A stretch of 64,000 nt of DNA from Bacteroidales bacterium (GTDB lineage Bacteria > Bacteroidota > Bacteroidia > Bacteroidales > UBA932): positions 161,804-225,803 of the forward strand of contig JAFRNC010000009.1 of the NCBI GenBank assembly GCA_017430365.1. The letters are read 5' to 3'. A program made the translations under genes and the position numbers. The notes beneath the pieces are model-generated. The model saw only the letters and a list, made by a program, of their open reading frames with translations. It made no database searches and had not been told where the DNA came from. This document shows positions 1,431 to 17,498 of this stretch, piece after piece; position 1 is the stretch's first letter, and every line of letters starts with the position of its first letter.

Positions 1431-2316
1431 AAGCCTCTTTCTTCTTCATGATGTCCACGGGTGCGTGGTGCAGGCTGAAGCGGATGTGTTCGATGTAGAT
1501 GTCCTGTATTTCAGGGATTTCGCCCATCCCTTCCAGACGGCAATCCACCTGGAAGCCTTCTGACTCGAGCGCTTCCTTCCAGTCGACTGCAATGTCGTTG
1601 GAGGCGTGGTCTCCTGCAACGAAAAGCAGGGGGACGAGCGTCACTTTCTTCGCTTTGGCCATCTTGAGCCTCTCGCACATGGTCCCGAATGTCGGGTATC
1701 CTTCGATTGTGGCAACATGGAAGAGCGGATTGCCCTTTGCAGAGAACATATAGTCAATCTGGCTGTATGTCGCCGTGGCGGGTGTATAGGTACCGTGTCC
1801 CACAAGTACTACATGCGCCTTCTGGCGGGCGTCAGCCGCATCGGCGTGCCTGGCGGCCATTATTCCGACCACCTTTTCACAGTCTTCCACATTGTACAAC
1901 AGAGGGGATCCCACTCTTATTTCCTTGAAGAAACCCTCCATGGCAGCAACATCGCGACGGAGTGATTCCATTTCGGCCCCGTCGAGCAGCGTCGTGCTCT
2001 GGACGATCACATGGGTAAATCCGTCTGCGCGGAGCCGGAGCATCGCTTCCAGCGGGGTCTGCTTCTCGATGCCGCGTTCCTTAAGCCTGCGGATGACGAT
2101 GCGCGAGGTATAGGCGTCCCTCAGGGTTAGTTCGGGGAATGCGGTGCGGGCTTTGGCATTTATGGCTTCGATGGTCTTTTCCCGGGTTTCGTCGTACGTG
2201 GTGCCGAAATGGACCATGAGCAGTGCGGCCTTGTCGCCGGTGAAATTACTTTCTTCCTGGCCGTAAACGGCGAAAGCAGGGAAGAGCATGCAAATAATCA
2301 GGAGGATTTTTTTCAT
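1411..2316 (-). CDS. cbiK: Sirohydrochlorin cobaltochelatase-fold protein CbiK with a signal peptide (periplasmic type)
   Basis: 301 aa. Signal peptide MKKILLIICMLFPAFAVYG. CbiK His motifs VLVGHGTYTP and LLFVAGDHASNDIA. It lies directly upstream of, and overlaps, the CobN-like gene. Confidence 0.85.
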   Translation of the reverse strand: MKKILLIICMLFPAFAVYGQEESNFTGDKAALLMVHFGTTYDETREKTIEAINAKARTAFPELTLRDAYTSRIVIRRLKERGIEKQTPLEAMLRLRADGFTHVIVQSTTLLDGAEMESLRRDVAAMEGFFKEIRVGSPLLYNVEDCEKVVGIMAARHADAADARQKAHVVLVGHGTYTPATATYSQIDYMFSAKGNPLFHVATIEGYPTFGTMCERLKMAKAKKVTLVPLLFVAGDHASNDIAVDWKEALESEGFQVDCRLEGMGEIPEIQDIYIEHIRFSLHHAPVDIMKKKEAYAAGKD

Positions 2317-2414: not shown

Positions 2415-3089
2415 ATGGATATTCTCGAGGCCATCAGTGCACGGCATTCCGTGCGTAAGTATCTTGACCGTCCTATAGGGACGAAGGAACGTGAAATCAT
2501 TCAGGCTGCCGTCGAACGGTGCAACGCTGAAAGCGGGCTGCATATCCAGCTGGTGCTTGACGAGCCCCAGGCTTTCGCCGCGGGTATCTGGAAATACGGC
2601 CAGTTCTCCGGCGTCAGAAACTATTTCGTCATGGCCGGTCCGAAAGGGAAGGAGGCCGAGGAGAAAGTGGGCCGGTATGGTGAGGAGCTGGTATTGCTGG
2701 CCCAGACCCTGGGCCTGAATACATGTTGGGTCGGGCTTACCTACAGGAAGATACCGGGAACATTCACCATTGCCGACGGCGAGAAGATACATTGTGTAAT
2801 CTCGCTGGGCTACGGTGCGAACCAGGGTGTGCAGCATCCTCTCCGTCCCAAGGAGAAGTTTTATGAGGCGGAAGGAGAAACGCCGGAATGGTTCCAGAAA
2901 GGCGTTGAGGCCGCCCTGCTTACCCCCACCGCCGTCAACCAGCAGAAGTTCAAGTTCATCCTCGGCCCCGACGGAACCGTCGAGGCGATATCCCTTTTCT
3001 CTTTGATGGGCTATACGTCCATCGATCTGGGCATAGTCAAATACCATTTCGAACAGGCTGCGGGGAAGGAAAATTTCCGGTGGAAATAG
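2415..3089 (+). CDS. Nitroreductase-family flavoprotein
   Basis: 224 aa. The N-terminus MDILEAISARHSVRKYLDRPI is typical of the nitroreductase family. It is divergent from cbiK. Confidence 0.75.
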   Translation: MDILEAISARHSVRKYLDRPIGTKEREIIQAAVERCNAESGLHIQLVLDEPQAFAAGIWKYGQFSGVRNYFVMAGPKGKEAEEKVGRYGEELVLLAQTLGLNTCWVGLTYRKIPGTFTIADGEKIHCVISLGYGANQGVQHPLRPKEKFYEAEGETPEWFQKGVEAALLTPTAVNQQKFKFILGPDGTVEAISLFSLMGYTSIDLGIVKYHFEQAAGKENFRWK

Positions 3090-3239: not shown

Positions 3240-5609
3240 TCAGAACTTGAAACCGACCGTAATCATGAAATGACGGGGTTTGGCGGGGCGGGTTGCGCTG
3301 ATGAAATATTTCGTGTTGAAAATGTTGTACAGGTTGCCGCCGAGCGTGACACCATTCCTGAGGGTGTAGAAAAGACCGCCGTCCACAATGAAGGTCGCGG
3401 GGAGATAGATGTTGTTGGTGATGTTTGTATACCGCTTGTCGGTATAGTTTCCGTTGATGTGGAACGAGAGGTTCTTCAGGGCGCCCGTCATGATGGTGTA
3501 ATCGGCGAAAGCGTAGAAGGTCGTGCGCGGGAAGTTGGTGGCGCGCAGGTTGATCGTACCGTCTTCGTTATAGGTGACCCATGTGGCGTCTTTCGGAATC
3601 CAGTCAAGGTAGCTGGCTACGGTACGCATGTCCGAAACGGCAAGGCCGCCGGTGAATTGGAAGCCCTGGAAAGGACGGAGGGTCAGATCGAGGTCAACGC
3701 CTTTTGAAGTCTGCTTGCCCACCTGGGCGCGGACGCTCTTGTTGATGACGGATCCGTTTTCTTCGACAGGTTTGTTGCCGATGGTCCTGACAACGTTATA
3801 TTTCCGGATGTAGAATACACTGGCGTTGACGTCGAGCCAGTCTGCCAATTCGTAGCGTACGCCGAACTCTCCCTGATAACCCTTCTCCGGCTTGAATACT
3901 TCTCCGCCGGCTTCATCGGGATTGAATTCGTTGCCGTTGCGGTCGATGTAAATGTAATTGGGGTTATAGACCGTGGTGTTGGGTTTGAAATAATTTGCTA
4001 CGGAGCCATAGAACGAAAGGGGCTCCACCGGCTGCCATACCAGTCCCAGTTTATAGGTCAGCGCACCGGTACGGGTCTCTTTCCATGCGGCGCGGTCTGC
4101 CTCTTCATAATGTTGCCTGCCGTCCTTGATGGTGGCTGAAGCATTCTGGTAGTGATAGAAATCGTAACGGAGTCCCACCATCGCCTTGAGTTGCTTGCTG
4201 AATGCGATGACATCATGAAGATAGATGCCATTCGTGATGTAATTGCGGATAGCCGCAGCCGAGACCTTGCAGTCCCACCAGTCCCGCACTGTGTGAGGAT
4301 CCTTGAGCGAAACTATTTCACCAAGGCCGGGACCCCAGACGTCGTCGTTGTTGTATCCGTTGTACTGGGTATAGTTGAAGAACTGATATGTCCAGCCGAA
4401 GTTGTAGTTGTGATTCAGGTTTCCGGTATTGAACTTTCCGCCCAGTTCCAGGACATTGGTGTAGTTGTGGCTGTCGGGGTTGAAGCAAAGCGGAGAGCCT
4501 GACTTGACGTTTTCAAGGTCAATGTAGGTAGTGGCACCGTTGCGGGTGTTGATGTAATACCAGTCATAGATCGGCTGGGTGCTTGTAGGATAGCTTACGT
4601 TCTCGACGCACCAGTAATCCAGGTCGCTGTGACCGTAGTTGAAACGTTCGCGAAGCGTCATCCAGTCAGTGATCTTGTGGGTATAGTTTAGCGAGACATC
4701 TATGACCCGGCGCTGCATATGGTTGTTGGCATTGTCGTTGAGAGACAGGTCGTAATCGAAGAACGGGTTGCGTTCACCGCTCTTCTTGAAGATCTGGCCA
4801 CCGGCCGTAAAGACGTCCCCGGGCATGACCGGTGCTCCGCCGATGTCTGTGGTGTACCGGTCGTCGTTGAAAGAGACGACACCTTCAAGGTATCCGTTGT
4901 CCGTAATTGCTGTCCCCAGGGTGAACAGGCCGCTGAAATTGTTGACGTTCACTTCGCGATAGCCGTCGCCGTTGGCGTAGTGCACGTGTGCACGGTAGTT
5001 GACAGGCCCTATCAGTTTGCCGCCGAAACCGACTGTCGCTTCTTTCTGGTTCCAGCTGCCGAGGCTGATACTGGCGTTTACGGTCTGCTGCGGTGAGGCT
5101 TTCTTGCGCACGATATTGATGACACCGCCCATTACGGAGTGGCCGCTGAGCACGGACGAGGGACCCTTGAGTACTTCGATGGATTCCACCGATGAAAGGT
5201 CACTGAACGGAACGTTGTTGATCAGGGAACGCTCGTCGCGGATGCCGTCCACTGCAATGACGGCGTCTGTGGTTCCCCGGATGCTGTATCGTTTGAATGC
5301 ACCGAGTTGGTCGGATGTCTGTACGACGCCCGGCAGATATTTCACTGCGTCTTCAAGTTGCAGGATATGGTTGCGTTCCAAAGTCTTGGCTTCTATGCGG
5401 CTGACCGTGATCGGAAGGTCCTTGATGGGGACATCGAGGTTGAGCAATTTTACCTGGTTGTCCTGCAAGGGACGATAATAATAATCATAGATGGCTGCGC
5501 TGTCAAGCGAAAACACGGAGTCGACCATGCTTTTATGGCGCTCAGGCTGTTGGGCCGATGCTGTGATGGCGCATAAGGTACAGATTGTAAGCAGAATGGT
5601 TTTTTTCAT
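3240..5609 (-). CDS. TonB-dependent receptor, siderophore-receptor-like
   Basis: 789 aa. Signal peptide present. Plug motifs VESIEVLKGPSSVLSG and GGVINIVRKK. Terminal beta-strand is ...MITVGFKF. The start overlaps the PepSY gene stop (ATGA). Confidence 0.9.
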   Translation of the reverse strand: MKKTILLTICTLCAITASAQQPERHKSMVDSVFSLDSAAIYDYYYRPLQDNQVKLLNLDVPIKDLPITVSRIEAKTLERNHILQLEDAVKYLPGVVQTSDQLGAFKRYSIRGTTDAVIAVDGIRDERSLINNVPFSDLSSVESIEVLKGPSSVLSGHSVMGGVINIVRKKASPQQTVNASISLGSWNQKEATVGFGGKLIGPVNYRAHVHYANGDGYREVNVNNFSGLFTLGTAITDNGYLEGVVSFNDDRYTTDIGGAPVMPGDVFTAGGQIFKKSGERNPFFDYDLSLNDNANNHMQRRVIDVSLNYTHKITDWMTLRERFNYGHSDLDYWCVENVSYPTSTQPIYDWYYINTRNGATTYIDLENVKSGSPLCFNPDSHNYTNVLELGGKFNTGNLNHNYNFGWTYQFFNYTQYNGYNNDDVWGPGLGEIVSLKDPHTVRDWWDCKVSAAAIRNYITNGIYLHDVIAFSKQLKAMVGLRYDFYHYQNASATIKDGRQHYEEADRAAWKETRTGALTYKLGLVWQPVEPLSFYGSVANYFKPNTTVYNPNYIYIDRNGNEFNPDEAGGEVFKPEKGYQGEFGVRYELADWLDVNASVFYIRKYNVVRTIGNKPVEENGSVINKSVRAQVGKQTSKGVDLDLTLRPFQGFQFTGGLAVSDMRTVASYLDWIPKDATWVTYNEDGTINLRATNFPRTTFYAFADYTIMTGALKNLSFHINGNYTDKRYTNITNNIYLPATFIVDGGLFYTLRNGVTLGGNLYNIFNTKYFISATRPAKPRHFMITVGFKF

Positions 5610-7030
5610 ACTTTGATGTTATTGTTAGGTCTGATGTGTTTCTTCCTGAACAGTTTTCTGATACCGCGGGCAATCCATTTGACGCTGAGTACGATACCGG
5701 TGACGGAAAGTGCGGTACCGCCGATCATCAGTGTGTACATGACGATATTCCAGAGCCACGGGCGGTCGGTAAGGAACTTGAAGTCCAGTGTATGTAGTTT
5801 GTGGTAGAGCCAGTTGCGAGTGCGGGTGTCATCGTCGAACCGACGGGTTTCCAGGGTGACAGGATTGTAGTACCAGCGGGTGTGCATATAGTCGTCTACG
5901 ATGACGCGGTATACGGGAAGCGAGGTTTCATTGACTTTCCGTGTATGATAGTCGCGGTCGAATTCATCGATCAGCTCGACCGTGTAGGGAATGCTGTCGC
6001 GGTACTGCCGCTCCATATCGAGGCGTACCATGTCTTCGGTGATGACAAATGGTCTGACCCCGTCTGCCTGGGCATCGATGAATACGCGTTCCGTCGGGGA
6101 GATAGTCAGGGTATAATAGGGATGTCCTTTGAATTCGCTCCAGGCTAAAGTCCGGGTATCCGGATATGCTGCCAGTGCTGTGCGGTAGTCCAGTGTGTAA
6201 AGACCGGGATCAAAATAACGGGATTCGCCGCGGCGTCCGTCGGGCGGCCCGTTACGTTGCTCGGTTTTCGGCGCTTTCTTCAGGAATTCCGGCATGTCAG
6301 CCAGCGACATCATGCCGCTGAAGGCGAAAGTAATGGCGAAAATGCCGAAAGAGAAACCGAGGATGTAGTGCCAGTTATACCACTTCTTCTTATAAGGGGC
6401 CGCCTTTTTTTTGCTCTTGACGGCCACGCGGATGGCAAGGACGAAGCCCAGGATCACCATAATGCAACCTATGCCGGCCGCCCATTTCACTGAGTTCAGC
6501 CAGAGTTGCTGTTCCTGCCGGAGTTTCGTGAAATATACCCAGTGGGGTATGGCGCCGACCCAGGCCCACATGCGTTCTTTGTGCGAAGTGAACTGCAGCA
6601 CCCGGCCTGTCTTGGAGCCCAGATAAAGCTGATGTCGCTCCGGATCGTCAAAATGATACTTGTAGATTGGAAGCTCTTCCCGGTTGCGACCGAAAGGAAT
6701 CCATTGGTCCAGCTTTTTCAGCGTGTCGATACGTGCCACCGGAGCTGTGCACCAACTGCGGATGGTGGCTTCAAGGGTGTCTTCTACGGGAGTGAACGTC
6801 CGGGCGGAAATCGTCCGGTCCCGTTGATTGGCAAGTATTTCCGTAAGGTTGTCCTTGTCGGGCAGTTCCACCGTGACGAGCGGAGGCAACAACGCCAGTT
6901 GCTTGTCAGCGGACGCACGGGGGAAACCGTGATATATCATCACGATACCCGTGGAGAACCATAGGAAGAACAATCCACACAGTAATACTCCCAGCAACTT
7001 GTGCAGGAAAGAAAGTATTTTGTACAACAT
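5606..7030 (-). CDS. PepSY-associated TM helix protein (PiuB-like)
   Basis: 474 aa. N-terminal TM segment LLGVLLCGLFFLWFSTGIVMIYHGFPR, further TM helices mid-protein and at the C-terminus. This architecture is typical of PepSY_TM proteins encoded next to TonB-dependent receptors. Confidence 0.8.
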   Translation of the reverse strand: MLYKILSFLHKLLGVLLCGLFFLWFSTGIVMIYHGFPRASADKQLALLPPLVTVELPDKDNLTEILANQRDRTISARTFTPVEDTLEATIRSWCTAPVARIDTLKKLDQWIPFGRNREELPIYKYHFDDPERHQLYLGSKTGRVLQFTSHKERMWAWVGAIPHWVYFTKLRQEQQLWLNSVKWAAGIGCIMVILGFVLAIRVAVKSKKKAAPYKKKWYNWHYILGFSFGIFAITFAFSGMMSLADMPEFLKKAPKTEQRNGPPDGRRGESRYFDPGLYTLDYRTALAAYPDTRTLAWSEFKGHPYYTLTISPTERVFIDAQADGVRPFVITEDMVRLDMERQYRDSIPYTVELIDEFDRDYHTRKVNETSLPVYRVIVDDYMHTRWYYNPVTLETRRFDDDTRTRNWLYHKLHTLDFKFLTDRPWLWNIVMYTLMIGGTALSVTGIVLSVKWIARGIRKLFRKKHIRPNNNIKV

Positions 7031-7094
7031 GTTTTGGAATTGAATTCCAGCATACGTGAAACAGCACTGACCCGGCGCTTTTCCACCTTATTGC

Positions 7095-7240
7095 AGACAG
7101 GCAGGTCTTCTGACTCGTTCCGCTTCAAGCGTCTTCCCGGCAATAAGCCAGTGACAAAGGAATGCTTGAGGCTTCAAAGGAACATACAGCAGCGGGCACT
7201 GCTCCGGATTCACACCGGATTCCCTATTCTTTCTCAACCG
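7095..7240 (-). promoter_or_regulatory. Cobalamin (B12) riboswitch, 5' leader of the PepSY-TBDT operon
   Basis: The reverse complement reads AATAGGGAATCCGGTGTGAATCCGGAGCAGTGCCCGCTGCTGTA ... GTCACTGG ... GGGAAGACG ... B12 box AGTCAGAAGACCTGCC (plus-strand 7100-7115). It lies about 70 nt upstream of the ATG at 7030. Confidence 0.85.
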
Positions 7241-7272
7241 TGGTCACGGCTTCGAACACCTGTTTGCGGAGG

Positions 7273-7280
7273 CAAAAATA
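7273..7280 (-). promoter_or_regulatory. Bacteroidetes -7 promoter box (TATTTTTG) for the riboswitch-1 operon
   Basis: Matches TAnnTTTG on the minus strand, about 30 nt upstream of the riboswitch core. Confidence 0.5.
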
Positions 7281-7301: not shown

Positions 7302-7341
7302 AAAAAAAAAAACGCCCCGTGACCGGCTGGATCACGGGGCG
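7302..7341 (-). terminator. Rho-independent terminator of the upstream (DASS) operon
   Basis: The minus strand reads CGCCCCGTGA-TCCAGCCGG-TCACGGGGCG followed by T11. That is a perfect 10-bp GC-rich stem, 28 nt after the DASS stop. Confidence 0.8.
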
Positions 7342-7368: not shown

Positions 7369-8874
7369 CTACACCAGGTGAAGGGTGCCGAAACCATAGA
7401 GGAAGACATAGCCCAGGACTATGCTGATGACGCCGACTATCAGGCCGATCTTGGCCATGTCCTTCTGCTGGACGAGATTCGTGGCGAAGGCCAGGGCGTT
7501 CGGCGGAGTGGATATGGGCAGCACCATCGCACTGCTGGAGGCTATGGCTACGCCGATCAGTACGATGGCGGTGCCGCCGATGGGAGCAATCTTGTCACCC
7601 ATCGCGGTGCATACGACAGCCAGTATCGGCATAAGAAGTGCTGCTGTCGCCGAATTCGAAATGAAGTTCGACAGAGCGTAGCAGATCAGTCCGGAAAGGA
7701 TCAGGATCAGCAGCGGTGAGAACGAATCGAAAGGAATGCTCCTGACCAGCAGCGAGGCGAGCCCCGAGACGTTCATCGCATAACCCAGTGCGAAGCCGCC
7801 TGCCACCATCCAGATGACGGACCAGTTGATTTCCTCTAGGTCGCGCCGGTCTATCACGCCGGTCGTGCAGAAGACAGCCAGAGGAAGCAGGGCTACCGTA
7901 TAGGTATTGATGCCCGTGAACGAGTCGAGGAGCCAGAGCAGTACGGTGACAATGAAGGTCACGATGACGATCTTGGTTTTGCGGTCGCGTTTCATCTCGC
8001 CTTCGATGACCAGGTCGACGGTCTTCTGCGTGAACGGGAAAATCTTCTTGATCAGCAGCCAGCTGATGAACAGCAGCAGTATGACCAGCGGCACCATCAT
8101 CAGCATCCACTGGCCGAAACCGATGTTGAGATTCAGTCCTTCGGGATCGTTCAGGTATTTGAGGGCGATCGTGTTGGGCGGCGTGCCGATAGGGGTGCCG
8201 ATGCCGCCCAGGTTGGCTGCAACCGGGATGCTGAGGGCCATTGCGATGCGGCCCTTGCCATTGGCGGGCAGCTGTTTGAAAACCGGGGCCAGGAATGTCA
8301 GCATCATTGCCGCCGTGGCGGTGTTGCTGATGAACATCGAAAAGAGGCCGGTAATGAGCAGGAATCCCAGAAGCACCATCTCGCTCTTGTTCCCGAAGGG
8401 CTTGAGCAGGATCTTGGCCAGATGGACATCCAGCCCGGTCTTGGTGGCTGCGATGGCCAGCACGAAACCGCCGAGGAAGAGCATTATCACCGGATCGGCG
8501 AAGCAGGCCATGATACCTTTGTAGCTCAGAAGGGTGCCGACCTGGTCCGGATCACAGATCCATTTGATGCCGGAATCCGAAGCGAAGAACAGGAGCATGG
8601 CCATGATCGCGATGGAAGTGGCCCAGGCAGGGACCGGTTCCATGATCCACATGAGCGTCGCGAAGGCGAAGACAGCTATGATGCGCTGCTGGACCACCGT
8701 CAGGCCGTCGATTCCGAAGGCGCTGGCTGGAATCAGGAACAGCGTAATCGTGACGGCCGCGATGATCAGCAGGCTGGCGGTCCTTCGTTTGATCCGGCCG
8801 GCCTGGTGCTTCAACTCCATTCCCATCTGGTAGATGGACTCTACCAGATGGAAACCTGGGAAATTCTTATACAT
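7369..8874 (-). CDS. DASS/SLC13-family anion (di/tricarboxylate or sulfate type) transporter
   Basis: 501 aa polytopic membrane protein. It carries the duplicated DASS signature FISNTATAAMMLTFLAPV and FISNSATAALLMPILAVV. The start is 6 nt after the CbiK-like lipoprotein gene stop, so it belongs to the same operon. Confidence 0.8.
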   Translation of the reverse strand: MYKNFPGFHLVESIYQMGMELKHQAGRIKRRTASLLIIAAVTITLFLIPASAFGIDGLTVVQQRIIAVFAFATLMWIMEPVPAWATSIAIMAMLLFFASDSGIKWICDPDQVGTLLSYKGIMACFADPVIMLFLGGFVLAIAATKTGLDVHLAKILLKPFGNKSEMVLLGFLLITGLFSMFISNTATAAMMLTFLAPVFKQLPANGKGRIAMALSIPVAANLGGIGTPIGTPPNTIALKYLNDPEGLNLNIGFGQWMLMMVPLVILLLFISWLLIKKIFPFTQKTVDLVIEGEMKRDRKTKIVIVTFIVTVLLWLLDSFTGINTYTVALLPLAVFCTTGVIDRRDLEEINWSVIWMVAGGFALGYAMNVSGLASLLVRSIPFDSFSPLLILILSGLICYALSNFISNSATAALLMPILAVVCTAMGDKIAPIGGTAIVLIGVAIASSSAMVLPISTPPNALAFATNLVQQKDMAKIGLIVGVISIVLGYVFLYGFGTLHLV

Positions 8875-8880
8875 GGAAGA

Positions 8881-10020
8881 CTATTCCGGATTCTTGGAGT
8901 GATAGTAGTCGAGAGGCTCGCCGGCGATTGCGTCCTGGGTGTGATTCATCCAGATCTGGCGAACGGTAGGCAGTTCGAGCAGGCCTTTCTCGATCATGGT
9001 CGAGTTGTTGCAGGTGAAGCCGGAACCGTTTGCACCGAAGAAGACTTTCCAACTGCAGTCCTCTACTTCGCCTTCTTCATTGGCTTCGGCCATGAGGTCT
9101 GCGAAAGTGTAGCTCTTGCCTTCGAATTTCTCGGGCAGGTCGTCGCCGGCCATGTCGTTGTGGCCGTGGTCGCCGTCGATGGACATCAGCGGGTGCAGAT
9201 AGACTTTGCGGTTGCCGGTATTCAGGCCGGCCTCCGCCATGCGCTCATAGACATGGGGTTTGAAATTCTCCATCATGTCCACGGTTCCTACGAAGTAGTG
9301 GGGGTTGATTGCCTGCAGTGCTTCTTCAAGCTGGGAGTAGCGGACGTTGGCCTTGTATGTATCGTAGGAGTCGGGGTTGCCGTGGCCCATGAATGCGACG
9401 ATGTCGTTGGCCGCCTGGCTCTTGTAGAGATTGTCGAGGGCCCTGGCTACTGCAGAAACGTCCTTGTCCTCATCCTGGAGGAGTGGAACGCCGAGTTTCA
9501 GGACAACCCTGGACAGGTAGTCGTCATCGAGGTCGCCGTTGGCGTTGTTGGCGAAGTCCTTGATGTAGTTGATCACGCGGGTGTACTCCTCACCGGGGAT
9601 TACCTGCAGCGACTGGACAACGATTTCGCTGTACCTGACGTTTTTCTGGGCGAAAGCGGTGAGCCAGAACGGCGGGGCGTAATAGTTGCGGATTTCGGCG
9701 CCGTCGGCGGCGTTTTCACCGGCGGCCGCACGGTTGATGCAGATTGCAGAGGAGAAGGAGAGGAAGACGTCGTAGCCGGGGAATGCTTTTTTGTAGGCAT
9801 CCACGGTTGCGTCGAATGCGTTGAAGGCCTGCTGCCAGGTCGAACCGAAGGCGACCAGCAGGATAACCTTGTTGTTCTTCTTCTGCTTGTTAACCGTCTC
9901 GTTGACGGCTTTCTGGTAAGCGTTGTAGTTGTACTCCTCGTTTTCTTTCGGGTTGCAGGAAGACAATCCGAAGACGAGTCCTACCATGAGGGCAAGCGCT
10001 AAAATTTTAGTTTTCTTCAT
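8881..10020 (-). CDS. CbiK-fold lipoprotein (IhtB-like), probably surface exposed
   Basis: 379 aa. Lipobox LVFGLSSC followed by the acid-rich stretch NPKENEEYNYN. CbiK motifs LLVAFGSTW, AFMGHGNPDSYD and LHPLMSIDGDHGHNDMAGDD. It overlaps the upstream TBDT gene by 14 nt. Confidence 0.75.
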   Translation of the reverse strand: MKKTKILALALMVGLVFGLSSCNPKENEEYNYNAYQKAVNETVNKQKKNNKVILLVAFGSTWQQAFNAFDATVDAYKKAFPGYDVFLSFSSAICINRAAAGENAADGAEIRNYYAPPFWLTAFAQKNVRYSEIVVQSLQVIPGEEYTRVINYIKDFANNANGDLDDDYLSRVVLKLGVPLLQDEDKDVSAVARALDNLYKSQAANDIVAFMGHGNPDSYDTYKANVRYSQLEEALQAINPHYFVGTVDMMENFKPHVYERMAEAGLNTGNRKVYLHPLMSIDGDHGHNDMAGDDLPEKFEGKSYTFADLMAEANEEGEVEDCSWKVFFGANGSGFTCNNSTMIEKGLLELPTVRQIWMNHTQDAIAGEPLDYYHSKNPE

Positions 10021-12163
10021 ATTGTTTTGAATTGTAGTTGTTGTTTATGGTGGAATTGAATTTGTCGCTGACTTTCCTGCCCTGGTTGAACCGTACGGTG
10101 ACTCCGATGTATACGGTCGTTCCGGGCGTGGTCGTACCCAGGTGCAGGCCGTGGAGCGTACGGTCCACATAGTTGAAGATGTTGTCCACACCGGCTTCGA
10201 CCTTCCACGCGGTACGTTTGGAATGTCCCAGGTCATGACCTGTGGAGATGCGCCATATCTGGTAGCCCTTGCCGTCGCCGTCGATCTGATAGTGGCGTCT
10301 GGAGGACATACGGCCGTAAAGGCCCGCACTCAGCCGGTAGTCCGGTGAGAACCGGTGATTCCATGTGATGAAACAGTTGCCCTTGTGGTGCGCCGTACCG
10401 TCGATTGTCACCTGGCGCATCCTGTCGTGGTCTGCGTCGTACTGGTTGGCGTCCGTATCGAGCCAGCTGTACCCCAGGCCGAAAGCCCATTCCCTGAGGC
10501 TGTATCTGGCGCTGAAATCCACGCCAAGCGTCCTGGCGTCATCCACGTTCTGATACTGCCGGGTCCGTACGGGGTCGTACTGGATGATGTACTCTGCAGG
10601 CGCTTCGTAGTTCGGGATAGTCACAAGTGTGATCATGTCCTTGACACGGTTATAGTAGCCCGTGACGTTGATGCTCAGTCCGGAGAGTGTGTATTCCCCT
10701 CCCAGCGAGAAATAATCGCTGGTCTGCGGACGCAGGCCGAGGTTGCCGAGATAGAGATACGTGCCGCTCATCTGTTTGACGTAGCGGTAGTGCAGTTCCT
10801 TGGGGGTAGGGGTCTTGAAGCCCTGGCTCCAGGTGGCGCGTATGCGCCAGGGCAGGCCCAGTGCAAGCATCGCGGAGACTTTCGGGGTGACCTTGATCCC
10901 GAACTGGCCGTTCCAGGTCAGGCGCGCACCGCCGGCCAGCTGGAGCCGGTTACGACCGAAATCGTGCTGCCATTCGTCCTGGACGTAAAATGCGGCGGTC
11001 CAGTCGCTGACCGTTCCGCCGACCACACGGGTAGGGGCATACAGCCAGTCGTAGCGGTATTCGGCGCCGGTGTTCAGCAGATTGTCGGCGGGCAGCCTGA
11101 AGATGCCTTTCAAACTGGCCATGGCCCTGCGCTGGTCGCTCTGCATTTCGGTCTGGCCGGGCAGATATGGATAGTAGGGATAATAGATCGTCCCCTTGCT
11201 CTTCTCGTAATCTTCGACCAGGGTGGTGGCCGTAAAATAATACATATACGCATGCCGGTTCCAGTCCAGGTCGAGCGTCACCACGTCTGTGGCGTTGGGC
11301 TTCCATTTGGCTCCGGCAGATGCCGAGGCGTTGCGGTACTGCAGGTCGTAGGTGTGTACGTCGAACTGGGCGTATTTTCCGTTGGGACGGTAGATCCGCT
11401 TGCCGTAAATGGTACCGCCCGCATAGAGTTCCAGTTTGTCGGAAGCCGTGAAGGTCAGCTGTTCGCCCACCTGGGCGTTGGTGTGCCGGTTCACGGTCTT
11501 GTTCTGCGAGTCCATGACGGGAGCCTGGGTGCCCGTGGTATGTTCTACGGATGTATTCTGCCAGCCGTCTGAATGCTGGAGCTGGAAGTTGGTGAGTGAA
11601 CTGAGCCGGCCGTATTTCAACCCTACGGCGTTATGCTGGCGCAGGTCGTTGTAGGAGCCGTAGCGGGAGCTGTTTTCCAGCAGCAGGCCCTCTTCGTGGT
11701 GTTTCCTGGTTATGATGTTGATCACGCCGGCGATGGCGTCGCTGCCATAAAGGGCGGATGAGGCTCCTTTTACGATCTCTATCTTTTCTATGTTCTGTGG
11801 ATCTATGAGCGACAGATCGTTCTCGCCGCCCACGTCGCCGTGGATGCGCTTGCCGTCGATCAGGATAAGTATATAACTGTTGCCCAGTCCGCCGAGTTGC
11901 ATGTGCGATCCCATGTCGTCTTCGTTGAATGCGAAGGCGGAGGTAAGGCCGCCCAGGATGTCCTCCAGGGAACGCCCGGCGTAATTGTTCAGCATCTGCC
12001 GGGTTATGACTTCAGTCTGGACGGGAACGTCTTTCAGAAGATGCGTCGTGCCGGTGGCCGTGACGACGGTCTCCGGAATCGTGTCCTGCAGATACGATTG
12101 CGCTGACATGGTTACGGCTAGGCACATGGCCCAACCGATGAGCAATAACTCCCTTATCTTCAT
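10007..12163 (-). CDS. TonB-dependent receptor, BtuB-like
   Basis: 718 aa. Signal peptide present. TonB-box-like PETVVTATG. Plug motifs IEKIEIVKGASSALYGSDAIAGVINIITRK. It is the first gene after cobalamin riboswitch 2. Confidence 0.85.
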   Translation of the reverse strand: MKIRELLLIGWAMCLAVTMSAQSYLQDTIPETVVTATGTTHLLKDVPVQTEVITRQMLNNYAGRSLEDILGGLTSAFAFNEDDMGSHMQLGGLGNSYILILIDGKRIHGDVGGENDLSLIDPQNIEKIEIVKGASSALYGSDAIAGVINIITRKHHEEGLLLENSSRYGSYNDLRQHNAVGLKYGRLSSLTNFQLQHSDGWQNTSVEHTTGTQAPVMDSQNKTVNRHTNAQVGEQLTFTASDKLELYAGGTIYGKRIYRPNGKYAQFDVHTYDLQYRNASASAGAKWKPNATDVVTLDLDWNRHAYMYYFTATTLVEDYEKSKGTIYYPYYPYLPGQTEMQSDQRRAMASLKGIFRLPADNLLNTGAEYRYDWLYAPTRVVGGTVSDWTAAFYVQDEWQHDFGRNRLQLAGGARLTWNGQFGIKVTPKVSAMLALGLPWRIRATWSQGFKTPTPKELHYRYVKQMSGTYLYLGNLGLRPQTSDYFSLGGEYTLSGLSINVTGYYNRVKDMITLVTIPNYEAPAEYIIQYDPVRTRQYQNVDDARTLGVDFSARYSLREWAFGLGYSWLDTDANQYDADHDRMRQVTIDGTAHHKGNCFITWNHRFSPDYRLSAGLYGRMSSRRHYQIDGDGKGYQIWRISTGHDLGHSKRTAWKVEAGVDNIFNYVDRTLHGLHLGTTTPGTTVYIGVTVRFNQGRKVSDKFNSTINNNYNSKQYEEN

Positions 12164-12204
12164 TTTCAGCTCCCGCTTTTTCCTGAGCGGGCGAACTCCA
12201 AATC

Positions 12205-12395
12205 CGGTTCTGGCAGGTCTTCTGACTTTCCCCGGTCCGCTCCGCCTTCCCGGGCATCAGCTTCGTTCCGGCCCGGCAGACGGGGGATGGCGAAGCGCCC
12301 AGTGGCGTTTTGGAAGCGGACCCTTTACGGGGATTACAGCTGCAGGTACAGTCCCGGTCTTTCACCGGATTCCCTTGCACCGGAGCGGCCAAATG
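12205..12395 (-). promoter_or_regulatory. Cobalamin (B12) riboswitch, 5' leader of the TBDT / CbiK-lipoprotein / DASS operon
   Basis: The reverse complement reads GGGAATCCGGTGAAAGACCGGGACTGTACCTGCAGCTGT ... GCCACTGGGCG ... GGGAAGGCG ... B12 box AGTCAGAAGACCTGCC (plus-strand 12212-12227). Confidence 0.85.
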
Positions 12396-12418
12396 CCGCC
12401 CGGTTACCAAAACCGATG

Positions 12419-12426
12419 CAAATATA
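12419..12426 (-). promoter_or_regulatory. -7 promoter box (TATATTTG) for the riboswitch-2 operon
   Basis: Matches TAnnTTTG on the minus strand, about 25 nt upstream of the riboswitch. Confidence 0.5.
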
Positions 12427-12446
12427 GCAATTAATCGGAAATTGTT

Positions 12447-12454
12447 TATCTTTG
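12447..12454 (+). promoter_or_regulatory. -7 promoter box (TATCTTTG) for the riboswitch-3 operon
   Basis: Matches TAnnTTTG on the plus strand, about 30 nt upstream of the riboswitch. It sits back to back with the minus-strand box. Confidence 0.5.
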
Positions 12455-12484
12455 CCGCCGGTTTCGGTGTCCACCGCCACCTGC

Positions 12485-12632
12485 CGGGGCGGGGAAGAAT
12501 AGGGAATCCGGTGAGAATCCGGAGCAGACACCGCTGCTGTCAGTCCTGCTAAACGCCTTGACAATCAATGGTCACTGTCCTTCAGGGGGCGGGAAGACGT
12601 CAGGGATGGGACAAGCCAGAAGACCTGCCGTA
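12485..12632 (+). promoter_or_regulatory. Cobalamin (B12) riboswitch, 5' leader of the TBDT / lipoprotein / cbiA / ABC importer operon
   Basis: Reads AATAGGGAATCCGGTGAGAATCCGGAGCAGACACCGCTGCTGT ... GTCACTG ... GGGAAGACG ... B12 box AGCCAGAAGACCTGCC (12614-12629). Confidence 0.85.
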
Positions 12633-12680
12633 ACCTTGATAGGAATGAAGCTTTCGGGTAATAAAAGCTTGCCGGATCCG

Positions 12681-14837
12681 ATGAGTATCCGATATAGACT
12701 GCTGGTGTCACTGGTCCTTCTGGGGCTGTGCTTCCCTCTTTTCGGGCAGGATTCCCTGTCTGTCAAGGGGACGCTCGGCGATACGCTCGTCCTCAGCAAC
12801 GCTACCGTAACGGCCAAGAGCCGCGAACAGCAGTTGCGTGAAGGGGCTTTCGCCGTGGGGGCTCTGAACATCCGCCTTCAGGCCAGTACGTTGCAGTCGC
12901 TGACATCCGCGATCGACCGCACGGCCGGCATCCGCATCCGCGAGGAAGGCGGTGTGGGAAGCGACTTCGACCTTTCGATCAACGGCATGAGCGGCAATTC
13001 CATCCGCTACTTCCTGGACGGTATGCCCCTGGACGCCAAAGGGACCGGCATGACGCTGGCCAATCTTCCCGTGAACATCATCGACCGTGTCGAAATATAT
13101 AAAGGTGTCATTCCCGCAAGTTTCGGCAGCGACGCACTGGGAGGTGCCGTCAACATCATAACCAACCGCAGCAGCCGCAACTATCTGGACTTTTCCTACG
13201 GAATTGGTTCGTTCCATACCCACAAGGCCGATTTCAGCGCGCAGTACATAGGTAAGAAGACCGGACTGGTTTTCAAGCCCGTGCTGAGCGCGAACTATTC
13301 GAAGAACGACTACCTGATGCGGGACGTCAAGGTCCGCAATGCCGACAGGACCGCGTTCATAGTAACCGACCTGCCGCGTTTCCATGACGCCTACCTTTCG
13401 CTCTTCGGCCAGCTTGAGGCCGGGGTACAGGACCGCGGCTGGGCAGACGCCTTCTTCGTGTCCGCCTCGGTTTCGAAAATCGACAAGGAGATACAGACCG
13501 GTGCGACCCAGGACCGTGTCATCGGAATGGCGGAGCGCAACACCCAGTCGCTGAACGTCGCTGCCCGCTATGAAAAGGCGGATTTCCTGACGGAAGGGAT
13601 GCAGTTCCAGGCATCCGTCTCACACACCTGGGACCATTCCCAGACTATCGATACGACTTACCGCCGCTACTATTGGGACGGTACCTATATCAACGGCGGC
13701 TACAGTGAGATACGCAGCCGCGGCAAGACACTGAGGCAATACAGGCGTCCTCTGACCGTGGTCCGCTCCAATCTTGCCTACCGCCTGGCGGAAGGTCACG
13801 AACTGGCGTTGAACTATCTGCTGAACCGTGCAGGCAACAGGCAGACGGATACATGGGACAGCGATTTCGTTCCGACCGACGATGTCCTGGCAAAGCACAT
13901 AGTCAGTCTTTCCTACGACCAGTCCCTCATGGACGGGCGTATGAACAACGCCCTGTTTGTCAAGGACTATGTCAATCACCTGACAGTCGGCCAGAGCGAA
14001 CTGCCTTCGACGACAGGGTCGGACAAGGTCAGAGGGTCTAATACCCAGAACTATGTGGGGTACGGCATAGGGTCCCGCTATCTCTTCCTGGATCCCCTGG
14101 CCGTCAAGGCTTCCTTAGAACACAGCATCAGGTTGCCGATATCACGCGAGGTGCTGGGCAACGGATCCACGGTCTATCCCAACCTGGCCCTCAAGCCAGA
14201 GATCAGCGACAATTTCAATCTGGGTCTCTTCGGTACCTTCGACCTGGGCGGCGGCCATTCCATATCATATGAGGCCAACGGGTTCATCAGGCTGGTGGAC
14301 AACTATATACGTGCTACTGTCACCGAGACTGAGAGCATGATGCAGTATGTCAACGTGGATGCCGTCCACATCAAGGGCGTGGACGGTGAGATCCGATACG
14401 ACTGGGCCGGGAAACTGCATGTGGCTGCGAATGTAAGCTACGACGACAGCCGCGATATGCGCAAGTACACGCAGTCTGGCGACATTTCTGTCACTTACCG
14501 CAACAGGACTCCGAACCGTCCGTGGACTTATTGCAATGCCGAGGTTTCCTATACCTTCCACAATGTCGGCCTCAGGGACAGCCGCCTCCGCCTGACGGCC
14601 GATTACCAGTACGTACACTGGTTCTATCTCACATGGGCGGCGTACGGCTCCGCCTCCACAAAATCCAAGGTGCCTACGCAGCATATCACCAACGCTTCAT
14701 TGCTCTATTCGTGGCAGGGCGGGCGTTACAATGTTTCGCTCGAGTGCACGAACCTGCTCGACGCACTGGCTTTCGACAACTACATGCTTCAGAAGCCCGG
14801 CCGCGCCTTTTTCTTGAAATTCAGACTGTTCTTATAA
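12681..14837 (+). CDS. TonB-dependent receptor
   Basis: The track ORF starts at TTG 12558, inside the riboswitch. The ATG at 12681 gives a clean signal peptide, MSIRYRLLVSLVLLGLCFPLFGQ. Plug motif VEIYKGVIPASFGSDALGGAVNIITN. The C-terminus is FFLKFRLFL. Length 718 aa. Confidence 0.85.
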   Translation: MSIRYRLLVSLVLLGLCFPLFGQDSLSVKGTLGDTLVLSNATVTAKSREQQLREGAFAVGALNIRLQASTLQSLTSAIDRTAGIRIREEGGVGSDFDLSINGMSGNSIRYFLDGMPLDAKGTGMTLANLPVNIIDRVEIYKGVIPASFGSDALGGAVNIITNRSSRNYLDFSYGIGSFHTHKADFSAQYIGKKTGLVFKPVLSANYSKNDYLMRDVKVRNADRTAFIVTDLPRFHDAYLSLFGQLEAGVQDRGWADAFFVSASVSKIDKEIQTGATQDRVIGMAERNTQSLNVAARYEKADFLTEGMQFQASVSHTWDHSQTIDTTYRRYYWDGTYINGGYSEIRSRGKTLRQYRRPLTVVRSNLAYRLAEGHELALNYLLNRAGNRQTDTWDSDFVPTDDVLAKHIVSLSYDQSLMDGRMNNALFVKDYVNHLTVGQSELPSTTGSDKVRGSNTQNYVGYGIGSRYLFLDPLAVKASLEHSIRLPISREVLGNGSTVYPNLALKPEISDNFNLGLFGTFDLGGGHSISYEANGFIRLVDNYIRATVTETESMMQYVNVDAVHIKGVDGEIRYDWAGKLHVAANVSYDDSRDMRKYTQSGDISVTYRNRTPNRPWTYCNAEVSYTFHNVGLRDSRLRLTADYQYVHWFYLTWAAYGSASTKSKVPTQHITNASLLYSWQGGRYNVSLECTNLLDALAFDNYMLQKPGRAFFLKFRLFL

Positions 14838-14856
14838 ATAAAACCAAACAAGCGAT

Positions 14857-16179
14857 ATGAAAGAAATCAAAAAAATGCTCGTCCTGGCCATCACGCTGGT
14901 CACGATGATCACCATGGCCGTCAGCTGCCAGAAGCCCGTTCCGGAGCCTGAACCGGAGCCCGAGCCGGAAGTGCTGAAAGACTACAATTTCGACCTCTTC
15001 GTCTGCGCCGTAAAGCACGGCGGCATGAGCCAGAACAAGAACGGCACGTACGTTCGCAGCGTACCCGCACTGACCGCCGACCAGCCGCGTGTCGAATTCA
15101 CCGGCAAAGGCATCGACATTACTCAGAACTATACTCTCGAGAGCATTGTCCGCGGCAAGTATTATTATCAGGTGCCCCAGAAGGCCACCGGCGGCTTCGT
15201 GAAGTTCCATATCGAGCGCAACGCCGCCGGCGATGAGTCCATCGTCGAAGACGCGGAAGTCCCGTTCAAGGACAATGTGTATTCCGCACGCAAGTACACG
15301 CATGCCTGGCTCAACGACAGTACTACGCTCGTGGTCGTCGGCACCTCCGACAAGGCCACCAAGGTAATCTGGTCGAAACTCAACGAGTCGAACCTAGCCA
15401 TCCAGTCCGAAGGTACATTTGACATCACCCTGCCCGAGGGTTACGGCTCCTTCTCCACCACCGGTCTGCTGACCTATCGCAAGAGCGACGGCAAACTCTA
15501 TTATTTCTATTTCGCCAAACCGGCAGCCGGAATGAGCGATGCGGCAAAGTCCCAGACCTATATCGCCGTGATCGATCCTTCGACGATGAAGGTTGAGTCG
15601 AATACCGCCGTTCCCAACGCAGTTATGGAAGAGACAGCCGGCAGCGCCTACGGTGAACTGATGCAGAACATGATCATGTACGACGAGGCAGACAACCTGT
15701 ATGTGGCAGGCCTGATTACCGTCAGTGGCCAGGAAATGGGTATCCTGCGCCGCATCCCCGTGGGTTCCAGGACCTTCGACGCTTCCTGGAACGGTTTCCC
15801 GAATCCGGAAGGCAAGCTCCTGACCGTGCAGTATCTCGGCAACGGCAAAGTGCTGAGTTATTCCCGCGACGAGTCGCTCGGAACCAAGATCGACAGCAAG
15901 AGCCATTTCTACTCCATCATCAATCTGGCCAACTCGTCCCGCGAGCGCGTGAAGTTCAACGGACAGGACCTGCCTTATTGCGGCGGCCGCTTCTCGCAGC
16001 GCAGCGCCGTGGCCAACGGCAAGGCTTATATCGGTATCGGCGGTGAAGTTGAAGGCGAGGCCGAGGCCAACTATCCGACAATCTACATCTACGACTGCCG
16101 TACCGGCGTGGTGGAGAAGGGTGTGGAGCTCTCCAAGGGCTTCTGCTTCGACATCATCCGTGCAATGGACGTCAAGTAA
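14857..16179 (+). CDS. Lipoprotein with a (PE)5 linker, probable beta-propeller; TBDT accessory protein (BtuG/DUF4374-like role is an inference)
   Basis: 440 aa. Lipobox MAVSC followed by QKPVPEPEPEPEPEV. Strand motifs recur through the protein (GKYYYQV, GKLYYFYF, DNLYVAGL, GKAYIGIG, TIYIYD). The gene lies 19 nt after the TBDT gene. Confidence 0.55.
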   Translation: MKEIKKMLVLAITLVTMITMAVSCQKPVPEPEPEPEPEVLKDYNFDLFVCAVKHGGMSQNKNGTYVRSVPALTADQPRVEFTGKGIDITQNYTLESIVRGKYYYQVPQKATGGFVKFHIERNAAGDESIVEDAEVPFKDNVYSARKYTHAWLNDSTTLVVVGTSDKATKVIWSKLNESNLAIQSEGTFDITLPEGYGSFSTTGLLTYRKSDGKLYYFYFAKPAAGMSDAAKSQTYIAVIDPSTMKVESNTAVPNAVMEETAGSAYGELMQNMIMYDEADNLYVAGLITVSGQEMGILRRIPVGSRTFDASWNGFPNPEGKLLTVQYLGNGKVLSYSRDESLGTKIDSKSHFYSIINLANSSRERVKFNGQDLPYCGGRFSQRSAVANGKAYIGIGGEVEGEAEANYPTIYIYDCRTGVVEKGVELSKGFCFDIIRAMDVK

Positions 16180-16200
16180 GATTTGCTAACTTTGTGTCCG

Positions 16201-17496
16201 GTGAAACCACAATTGCTCATCGGCGCCATGCATTCCGGGAGTGGCAAGACCACTTTCACGATGGGGATCCTGCGGGCTTTGCAACGTCAAGGCCTGCAGG
16301 TTCAGCCATTTAAATGCGGCCCCGATTACATCGACACCCGTTTCCACGCCGTGGCGGCCGGACGGGAGTCGGTCAACCTCGACATCTGGCTCTCTTCCGA
16401 GTCGCATGTGCGGGATCTCTACGCCCGTTACGGCGAGGATGCAGGAGCCTGCCTCGTGGAAGGGGTGATGGGCCTCTTTGACGGTTTTGACCGGATGCAG
16501 GGGAGCAGCGCGGCAATCGCGAGGCTTCTCGATATTCCCGTGGTACTGGTTGTAGGCGCCCGCTCGATGGCGTATACCGTGGCTGCGCAGCTTCACGGCA
16601 TGAAGAGTTTCCTTCCGGGACTGCGCATCGCCGGCGTGGTTTTCAACCAGGTATCTTCGGAAAACCATTTCCGTTTCCTGCGCGAGGCCTGTGATGATGC
16701 GGGCCTTCGCTGTTTCGGGTGGCTGCCGAAAGCACCGGGACTGGAGGTGCCTTCCAGGCATCTCGGTCTTACGCTTGCGGCCAGGCAGGATATGGAAACC
16801 TGGATCGACAGGGCTGCGGATCTGGTATCGGCCAATATAGACATAGCCGGATTGCTGGAAGCCGTGAACTCTCTTGTCCATGAACCGGCGGAACGACCCG
16901 TGGAACGGTCTGGTTCACTCAGGACGGCCGTAGCCCGCGACGCGGCTTTCAACTTCACTTACCGGGAGAACATCGCCCGGCTTACCCTGCTCGGACCGGT
17001 GACGTTCTTCAGCCCTCTTGCAGGGGATCCGCTTCCTGAAGCCGATCTGGTCTATCTTCCGGGAGGCTATCCCGAGCTTTTCGCCGCAGAATTGTCTTCC
17101 CGTTCCGGCCTGATGGCTCAGATACGGGACTTCGCAGAATCAGGCGGCCGCATTCTGGCGGAGTGCGGAGGCATGATTTATCTCTCACGGGCCATCGAAG
17201 GAGTGGAAGGCGGTCCTTTCCCCATGTGCGGAGTACTTCCTTTCGCCGCCACCATGGCCGGAGCGCGTCTCCACCTCGGTTATCGCCGCATTGTGGATGC
17301 TGCCGGACGGGAATGGCGCGGGCATGAGTTCCACTATTCCGACGTGACGTCGCCGGAAGCGCTGCCTTCAGCCGCCGTCCAATTCAACGCCAGGGGCGGG
17401 AGGGTATCCACTCCCCTGTATCGCTGGAAAAACGTAATCGCCGGTTATACGCACCTCTACTGGGGTGAGACCGGCATAATGAAATTATGGGATTGA
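16201..17496 (+). CDS. cbiA: Cobyrinic acid a,c-diamide synthase
   Basis: P-loop LIGAMHSGSGKTTFTMGIL and FKCGPDYID. C-terminal glutamine amidotransferase part with AECGGMIYL. The track start is TTG 16183. I prefer the GTG at 16201 (MKPQLLIG...), which is uncertain. Confidence 0.85.
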   Translation: MKPQLLIGAMHSGSGKTTFTMGILRALQRQGLQVQPFKCGPDYIDTRFHAVAAGRESVNLDIWLSSESHVRDLYARYGEDAGACLVEGVMGLFDGFDRMQGSSAAIARLLDIPVVLVVGARSMAYTVAAQLHGMKSFLPGLRIAGVVFNQVSSENHFRFLREACDDAGLRCFGWLPKAPGLEVPSRHLGLTLAARQDMETWIDRAADLVSANIDIAGLLEAVNSLVHEPAERPVERSGSLRTAVARDAAFNFTYRENIARLTLLGPVTFFSPLAGDPLPEADLVYLPGGYPELFAAELSSRSGLMAQIRDFAESGGRILAECGGMIYLSRAIEGVEGGPFPMCGVLPFAATMAGARLHLGYRRIVDAAGREWRGHEFHYSDVTSPEALPSAAVQFNARGGRVSTPLYRWKNVIAGYTHLYWGETGIMKLWD

Positions 17497-17498
17497 AT

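Follow-up and report, generated by a model that had tools for sequence, protein, structure and literature searches.

The 64,000-nucleotide window analyzed here (from a rumen Bacteroidales bacterium, assembly GCA_017430365.1, contig JAFRNC010000009.1, positions 161,804 to 225,803 of the forward strand) encodes on its minus strand, at 8881..10020, a 379-amino-acid lipoprotein of the CbiK fold, the central feature of this study; its gene is located directly behind that of a TonB-dependent transporter (TBDT), in an operon led by a cobalamin riboswitch. The match of the Pfam family CbiK (PF06180) to residues 51-294 (E = 9.7e-36; 123.9 bits, with a cut-off of 26.2), together with the more than 3,400 database homologues, indicates that this is a real gene. 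The N-terminus of the product, MKKTKILALALMVGLVFGLSSC, contains a signal peptide with the lipobox LSSC (residues 1-22, nucleotides 9955-10020, minus strand), in which Cys22 is followed by NPKENEE; residues 23-50, after the signal, form an acidic linker with a helix, residues 51-366 make up the chelatase fold proper, and the protein ends in a conserved tail, LDYYHSKNPE. No internal Met able to yield a cytoplasmic isoform is present in the open reading frame. The gene product is an exported, lipid-anchored chelatase-fold protein.

Both metal-site histidines of CbiK are invariant in the alignment, and the third ligand is acidic, with Asp in place of Glu. His213 (motif FMGHGN, codon 9382..9384, minus strand) aligns with His145 of Salmonella CbiK and is invariant in all 49 aligned sequences, the second CbiK of the window included; His285 (motif DGDHGHND, codon 9166..9168, minus strand) aligns with Salmonella His207, and Asp248, invariant within the long family to which the lipoprotein belongs, occupies the place of Salmonella Glu175. 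An additional histidine, His287, is invariant across the long family as well, and the motif SLH has been replaced by SLQ. Inspection by eye of the surroundings of GDHGHND revealed no DxHxxG, the canonical B12-binding motif. When aligned with FetB-type proteins and with the classical CbiK of the window, the lipoprotein shows five family-specific insertions; five residues are inserted after His213 (GHGN-PDSYD-TYKAN) and 26 residues behind GDHGHNDMAGDD, the His285 motif, two N-domain loops are enlarged, and the linker and helix after the lipid-bearing Cys are longer.

An AlphaFold2 model built from the alignment of 49 sequences (predicted local distance difference test, pLDDT, 88.5; predicted template-modelling score, pTM, 0.88) displays a two-lobed alpha/beta fold with an inter-domain cleft; within it, the 26-residue insertion after the His285 motif is modelled with high confidence and the loop after His213 with low confidence (pLDDT about 55). 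A Foldseek search with the model returned FetB (9b86) first, with a template-modelling (TM) score of 0.88, along with 2xvx (0.83) and 1qgo (0.88), and SirB after these. Sequence comparison with the PDB gave FetB/IhtB of Porphyromonas gingivalis (9B86, E = 2.5e-20), CbiKP of Desulfovibrio vulgaris (2XVX, E = 2.8e-19) and Salmonella CbiK (1QGO, E = 3.9e-11). The lipoprotein belongs to the class II chelatase superfamily (PF06180). CbiKP is likewise an exported class II chelatase with a His/Glu/His site; however, it is soluble and periplasmic, is neither a lipoprotein nor coupled to a TBDT, and lacks the insertions of the window protein. The position of His96, a haem ligand of CbiKP, is Thr in the lipoprotein. 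Salmonella CbiK (1QGO/2XWP) shares the fold and both histidines, whereas it is cytoplasmic and has no signal peptide, and its sequence similarity to the lipoprotein is far lower than to the second CbiK of the window, a protein of the classical type (CbiK2; 1411-2316, minus strand; 301 amino acids; Pfam E = 2.2e-74; E = 7.5e-41 with Salmonella CbiK).

The operon opens with a cobalamin riboswitch aptamer (12195..12426, minus strand) that matches the full model, positions 1-189, of Rfam family RF00174 (92.3 bits, gathering score 31.5, E = 1.3e-21). Directly 5' of it, a consensus scan identified a putative promoter-like site with TATATTTG (12421..12448, minus strand), which fits the Bacteroidetes −7 consensus TAnnTTTG. 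The riboswitch is separated by 31 nucleotides from the ATG of the transporter gene (TBDT1; 10007..12163, minus strand; 718 amino acids), which encodes a Plug domain (Pfam E = 2.7e-23) and a 22-strand-type barrel (TonB_dep_Rec_b-barrel, E = 4e-34); the 3' end of this gene and the start of the lipoprotein gene share 14 nucleotides. The last gene, which begins 6 nucleotides past the lipoprotein stop codon, encodes a DASS-family anion:Na+ symporter (7369..8874, minus strand; 501 amino acids; NCBIfam TIGR00785, 258.3 bits with a cut-off of 198.6; Pfam Na_sulph_symp, E = 2.6e-47). An intrinsic-terminator-like hairpin (7313..7341, minus strand; 12 base pairs, 9 of them G-C, followed by 10 T) lies between the DASS stop at 7369 and the next riboswitch at 7278 and closes the operon. 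As an observation on its own, a DASS protein in an operon under a B12 riboswitch could serve to release succinate at times when propionate cannot be formed for want of B12, or to take up an anionic precursor.

The homology of the transporter is uninformative as to its substrate, and assignment on this basis was abandoned. TBDT1 scores 129 bits with the NCBIfam model TonB-B12 (cut-off 599.7), about the same as with TonB-hemin (132.6) and CirA (131.9), and no NCBIfam model reaches its curated cut-off for this protein; TBDT1, the second transporter of related loci (TBDT2) and an IhtA-like TBDT all fall between 129 and 147 bits on TonB-B12, with similar values for the haem and Cir models. The PDB sequence matches of TBDT1 are Cir and Escherichia coli BtuB, each in the plug domain only, and chains of Bacteroides BtuB were not among the matches at E <= 0.01. 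An earlier note on this DNA, prepared from the sequence alone, had called the receptor BtuB-like, a designation for which we find no specific support. All the sequence statements of that note proved correct, namely the 379-residue open reading frame with a CbiK fold, both histidine motifs, the lipobox Cys with an acidic stretch resembling the Bacteroidota surface-export signal, the overlap with the upstream TBDT gene, and the position in a cobalamin-riboswitch operon. Its interpretation held with respect to fold, signal, translational coupling to a TBDT and cobalamin control, and gave way on two points, the BtuB-like receptor and a contrast with P. gingivalis that is considered below. The two functions it proposed, a corrinoid catcher in the manner of BtuG and an extracytoplasmic (de)chelatase, both agree with the data.

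Conservation of this arrangement was assessed by scanning species represented by one genome each, which yielded at least 185 matching stretches; the counts given here refer to the best 80 loci, covering about 20 kb per genome, which belong to Bacteroidales, Prevotellaceae and Muribaculaceae of rumen or gut. Genes in these loci were called with a codon-usage score (the DNA has 57% G+C), which reproduced the database gene calls, and then clustered. The lipobox Cys is present in 81 of 81 family members, and in 78 of the 81 two or more of the residues from +1 to +6 are acidic, most commonly as C-[SKD]-D-D, in agreement with the lipoprotein export signal described for Bacteroidota (10.1101/2023.03.17.533168). 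In 80 of 81 cases the gene immediately upstream, in the same orientation, encodes a TBDT; the two genes share exactly 14 nucleotides in 69 of 80 loci and 11-17 nucleotides in 75 of 80. The TBDT1 sequences of 71 loci make up a single orthogroup (median identity 68%), and their identity to the downstream TBDT2 is no more than about 29%. The lipoprotein is obligately coupled, genetically, to one TBDT lineage.

When the 68 loci with a complete TBDT1 were searched with a profile of the window riboswitches, a riboswitch was found directly upstream of TBDT1 in 66 (61 by the strict definition and 5 with a called open reading frame start inside the aptamer); Rfam, applied to a sample of 6 loci, confirmed the profile match in all 6, and for one further locus both searches showed no riboswitch. 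Because the order riboswitch, TBDT, lipoprotein recurs in 66 of 68 loci, the arrangement of the module is not a matter of chance. Clustering at 50% identity reduces the long family to one representative, surrounded by a handful of lipoprotein families at 37-52% identity, and a family that is 46% identical retains the 14-nucleotide overlap. The nearest 120 of the more than 3,400 homologues, all from Bacteroidales assemblies, measure 364-413 amino acids, apart from one partial protein of 313.

Downstream of the lipoprotein, TBDT2 is the next gene in 48 of 75 loci, and in 39 of 75 the same-strand run contains corrin-ring genes identified by Pfam, namely CbiH and CbiC, CbiE and CbiT, CbiG and CbiF, and CbiJ and CbiD. 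That the pair heads an operon with TBDT2 and corrin-ring genes in most relatives is the strongest contextual clue to its role, one that the earlier note had overlooked. Genes for a BtuF-type binding protein and a PduO-type adenosyltransferase come next in some loci, the BtuF-type gene being immediately adjacent in only 1 of 75; comparison of the neighbouring periplasmic binding proteins as BtuF-type or haem-type matched no NCBIfam model. DASS is directly downstream in 4 of 75 loci (the window and three others) and present anywhere in 7 of 75, in the closest relatives only. Within the roughly 20 kb per genome covered in the 80 loci, neither CbiL nor CobA/CysG nor a cytoplasmic chelatase (CbiK/CbiX) was detected.

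Where the nearest 120 homologues bear a source name, it is 'sirohydrochlorin cobaltochelatase', which would make the protein a plain biosynthetic enzyme of the cytoplasm. The Pfam match and the proximity of cbi genes agree with this annotation; nevertheless, it is hardly tenable and is effectively ruled out by the lipoprotein signal found in all 81 family members. Beyond this signal, the coupling to a TBDT speaks against it, as do the score of 91.8 bits with the equivalog model for this enzyme (NCBIfam NF047852), which does not reach the cut-off of 400, and the identity of 22-25% to the classical CbiK-type protein of the same window.

Among characterized systems, the closest is IhtA/IhtB of P. 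gingivalis, as the earlier note had aptly proposed. IhtB, also known as FetB (9B86), is a CbiK-fold lipoprotein encoded directly behind a TBDT gene, retains both histidines, and is both the best sequence match and the joint-highest fold match of the window protein; the FetB-type proteins also carry a lipoprotein signal with a lipobox Cys (LSCS, TSCT and similar, compared with LSSC in the window). The two are, however, only about 30% identical and differ in length (293 and 379 amino acids), and the window protein has the longer N-terminal linker and helix, the five insertions, the conserved C-terminal tail, Asp for the Glu of the triad, SLQ for SLH, and the extra His287. It falls outside the FetB clade, whose members are at least about 45% identical to one another and about 290-300 amino acids long, and forms a separate clade tied to FetB through intermediate lipoprotein families. 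The loci differ too: IhtA-type transporters contain a CarboxypepD_reg domain that TBDT1 lacks; TBDT and lipoprotein genes are 18-27 nucleotides apart in FetB-type loci, whereas those of the window overlap by 14; and FetB-type loci continue with BtuFCD-like IhtCDE genes of the Peripla_BP_2/FecCD/ABC class, whereas the window continues with DASS and its relatives with TBDT2 and cbi genes. The substrates of this transporter class are chelates rather than free ions.

The earlier note had treated cobalamin control as the feature that sets the window apart from IhtA/IhtB. This contrast does not survive comparison, since a locus whose FetB shares 77% identity with that of P. gingivalis (L088) has two cobalamin riboswitches in tandem ahead of the ihtA-like TBDT gene (323-521 and 823-1071; 96.4 and 62.7 bits), and a coenzyme-B12 riboswitch has been reported upstream of P. 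gingivalis ihtA, whose product was described as a BtuB homologue (PMC3764172). The same order of riboswitch, TBDT and lipoprotein is found in a locus of an intermediate family (L091; 340 amino acids, 41% identical to the window protein). Cobalamin control in all three of these families indicates that it characterizes the superfamily of CbiK-fold lipoproteins in general, which argues for a physiological role in the B12 economy and not in haem or iron use. Such a role is consistent with the lack of response of iht transcripts to iron or haem (PMC12094164) and with the report, cited as unpublished data, that disruption of cbiK in Bacteroides fragilis has no effect on the use of haem iron (PMC6460266). 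The module belongs to the known IhtAB type and constitutes a distinct long form of it, widespread among Bacteroidales of the rumen and gut.

These observations bear directly on the classical view of IhtB, according to which the lipoprotein would bind haem at the surface or act as a reverse ferrochelatase, and the TBDT would receive iron or porphyrin from it. Such a view can draw on the haem binding of the closest solved relatives, FetB and the periplasmic CbiKP, on the published IhtAB model (PMC12094164), and on the CobN-like BtuS/HmuS genes nearby. Nevertheless, we consider it very unlikely for the window protein, given the cobalamin control, which holds for 66 of 68 loci as well as for two further sequence families, neighbouring genes that are B12 genes and not haem or iron genes, the iht and B. 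fragilis data cited above, and the Thr at the position of the haem ligand His96 of CbiKP.

Expression data are available for Xylanibacter ruminicola KHP1, in which a cobalamin riboswitch (operon J4031_01225-01235) is followed by genes for a TBDT, a 'sirohydrochlorin cobaltochelatase', a second TBDT, CbiH, cobyric acid synthase and CobD (PMC11575231). The riboswitch of the KHP1 leader shares 82-83% identity with the TBDT1 riboswitches of four of the related loci (L086, L027, L028 and L047), and, judging from gene order, annotation and leader similarity, the KHP1 'cobaltochelatase' (QVJ81054.1) is probably orthologous to the window lipoprotein. It is the most strongly B12-repressed transcript (log2 −6.22) and protein (log2 −6.72) of that strain (PMC11575231, Tables S6/S7), and its baseMean of 5677 exceeds the 3356 of the preceding TBDT (PMC11575231). 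That the transcript outnumbers that of its transporter is as expected of a capture protein.

Taken together, these results are best accommodated, with a probability that we put at roughly 0.4, by a lipoprotein that serves as the surface partner of TBDT1 and captures a cobalt tetrapyrrole for import. In such a system, the genes for TBDT1, the lipoprotein and DASS would be carried on one transcript, the expression of which the cobalamin riboswitch would permit only when intracellular B12 is low. The lipoprotein, anchored in the outer membrane and most likely exposed at the surface, as has been described for its homologue IhtB (PMC12094164), would act as the dedicated partner of TBDT1; its inter-domain cleft, which retains the His213/Asp248/His285 metal site and is reshaped by the insertions beside both histidines, would capture the cobalt tetrapyrrole from rumen fluid and pass it to the transporter. 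As the ligand, finished cobalamin would be less likely than an incomplete corrinoid or an early cobalt-tetrapyrrole intermediate. Import would then feed the co-regulated enzymes of salvage and late biosynthesis, namely the corrin-ring Cbi enzymes, CbiA, BtuFCD and the PduO-type adenosyltransferase encoded in the same or neighbouring B12-controlled operons. Surface exposure, physical contact between lipoprotein and transporter, and the nature of the ligand are inferred. In favor of capture, related modules join chelate-type importers and corrinoid-processing enzymes, and the protein is very abundant under B12 limitation.

Comparable divisions of labor are known in this group of bacteria. Like the lipoprotein of the window, BtuG carries a surface-export signal, adjoins a TBDT and shares a cobalamin riboswitch with it (PMC6143338, PMC10404256); however, BtuG is a seven-bladed beta-propeller, whereas the window protein has a class II chelatase fold, and TBDT1 is not recognizable as a BtuB orthologue. 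HmuY/HmuR and XusB/XusA similarly combine a ligand-capturing surface lipoprotein with a non-SusC TBDT (10.1101/2023.03.17.533168; PMC13142918), but their folds, ligands (haem and siderophores) and regulators are different.

Several points weigh against capture of a cobalt tetrapyrrole by the lipoprotein. Both this binding and the surface location of the long family are predictions, and the KHP1 orthology is based on synteny and leader similarity and not on protein sequence. TBDT1 is not detectably nearer to BtuB than to Cir or haem receptors, and the characterized Bacteroides Btu relay (BtuB, BtuG, BtuH, BtuJ and BtuK) has no CbiK-fold member. The closest characterized relative, FetB, binds porphyrins and has been linked to the formation of Mn-protoporphyrin (PMC13065792). 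Finally, a pure binder needs no catalytic triad, yet the triad is invariant, which favors a chelatase or a metal site.

The invariance of the His/Asp/His site is compatible with an extracytoplasmic cobaltochelatase, at the surface or in the periplasm, that would insert Co2+ into a foreign metal-free tetrapyrrole, for example sirohydrochlorin (factor II) or a compound of the hydrogenobyrinic-acid type, after which the product would be imported and completed by cytoplasmic Cbi enzymes. Catalysis of this kind, which we regard as possible but rather unlikely, would fit a gene that heads operons with CbiH, C, E, T, G, F, J and D while no cytoplasmic CbiK or CbiX is seen in the same loci, and whose product has no internal start for a cytoplasmic isoform. 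CbiK2, which is the one further type of CbiK in the vicinity, begins in the window with a Sec signal peptide that ends in ...VYG/QEE, and its homologues in related loci have signal peptides ending in A-Q in 13 of 13 cases; given these signals and that of the lipoprotein, both CbiK types are exported, and a cytoplasmic cobaltochelatase is not seen near the corrin-ring genes. The chelatase activity that FetB shows in vitro (PMC13065792) points in the same direction, as does the gap in P. gingivalis, which has no precorrin-2 synthesis although the later pathway is present, together with the existence of tetrapyrrole-precursor salvagers (PMC6461909). Conversely, with about 20 kb covered per genome, a cytoplasmic CbiX or CbiK could be encoded elsewhere; CbiL and CobA/CysG are likewise absent from the loci, so that the pathway need not be complete; the operon of the window has no ring genes; and abundance above that of the TBDT suits a binder better than an enzyme. 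An extension of the same idea, in which these Bacteroidales would pirate early metal-free tetrapyrroles of their neighbours, such as sirohydrochlorin/factor II, insert cobalt at the envelope and import the product into a chelatase-free cytoplasmic pathway, appears improbable to us, although envelope insertion would explain why both CbiK types in the loci are exported.

The same residues could, conceivably, bind the metal alone. The lipoprotein would then catch Co2+ at the His/Asp/His site, perhaps with His287, and deliver it through TBDT1 and then an inner-membrane carrier such as DASS, supplying cobalt for B12 synthesis. According to comparative genomics by Rodionov and colleagues, B12 riboswitches reportedly often control cobalt transporters in B12 producers, and no known cobalt transporter is encoded in the module operons. 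Proteins of the CbiK family bind Co2+ at this metal site, which the invariant His287 could reinforce, and the entry 2xvz was co-crystallized with cobalt. We nonetheless hold cobalt capture to be distinctly unlikely, because in related loci the module is accompanied by BtuF/FecCD-type systems, which are for chelates and not ions, because the tetrapyrrole cleft is retained as an ordered fold, and because DASS is limited to the closest relatives and proteins of this family transport anions.

The module is not the only B12-linked set of genes in the window. A CobN-like gene of the BtuS/HmuS type (3-1430, minus strand) is overlapped by CbiK2 and runs past the start of the window. In five related loci (L008, L019, L052, L073 and L064), the module is followed by CbiK2, a CobN-like protein of about 1,300 amino acids, a small membrane protein, a MotA/ExbB-like protein and DUF2149, a gene set that resembles hmuSTUV but in a B12 context. 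A nitroreductase gene of the TM1586 type (Pfam E = 3.5e-70) adjoins CbiK-family genes in the window (2415-3089, plus strand) and in two other loci, L018 and L089 (7151-7837); in L089 its neighbour is an orphan CbiK lipoprotein of 368 amino acids that has neither a TBDT nor a riboswitch.

Two further cobalamin riboswitches flank the operon of the lipoprotein. The second riboswitch of the window (7083-7278, minus strand; 102.3 bits) leads a PepSY_TM gene (5606-7030, minus strand) and a siderophore-type TBDT gene (3240-5609, minus strand), which overlap by 4 nucleotides; the siderophore reductases FoxB and XusC are members of the PepSY_TM family. The third, which is divergent (12448-12646, plus strand; 103.6 bits), leads an operon at 12558-20709 (plus strand) with genes for an XusA-like TBDT (9GBC, E = 6.5e-104), a 440-amino-acid lipoprotein, CbiA and BtuF/C/D-like proteins. 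The TTG start listed at 12558 falls inside the aptamer, so that the true start is probably further downstream. The 440-residue lipoprotein, for which no Pfam or PDB sequence match was obtained, is possibly an XusB-like propeller, and by its predicted gene content the operon links xenosiderophore-type uptake to B12 control and cobyrinic-acid amidation.

B12 and its precursors are a contested currency of gut and rumen communities, and in rumen Prevotellaceae B12 decides the conversion of succinate to propionate. The Btu relay has no chelatase-fold member, whereas three sequence families or more combine a lipoprotein of this fold firmly with a TBDT of its own behind a cobalamin riboswitch. If corrinoid binding holds true, the lipoprotein would represent a new structural class of B12-capture protein, and the 'iron/haem' system IhtAB of P. 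gingivalis would need to be re-read as part of the B12 economy. If the protein is instead an external chelatase, it would define a new route for the salvage of cofactor precursors, and insertion of cobalt at the envelope would solve the old puzzle of a P. gingivalis corrin pathway that lacks precursor synthesis. Either way, genomic calls of B12 'producers' that count this exported protein as the CbiK of the pathway may be wrong, and the module poses a clear, testable question that bears on how B12 producers and salvagers are told apart from their genomes.

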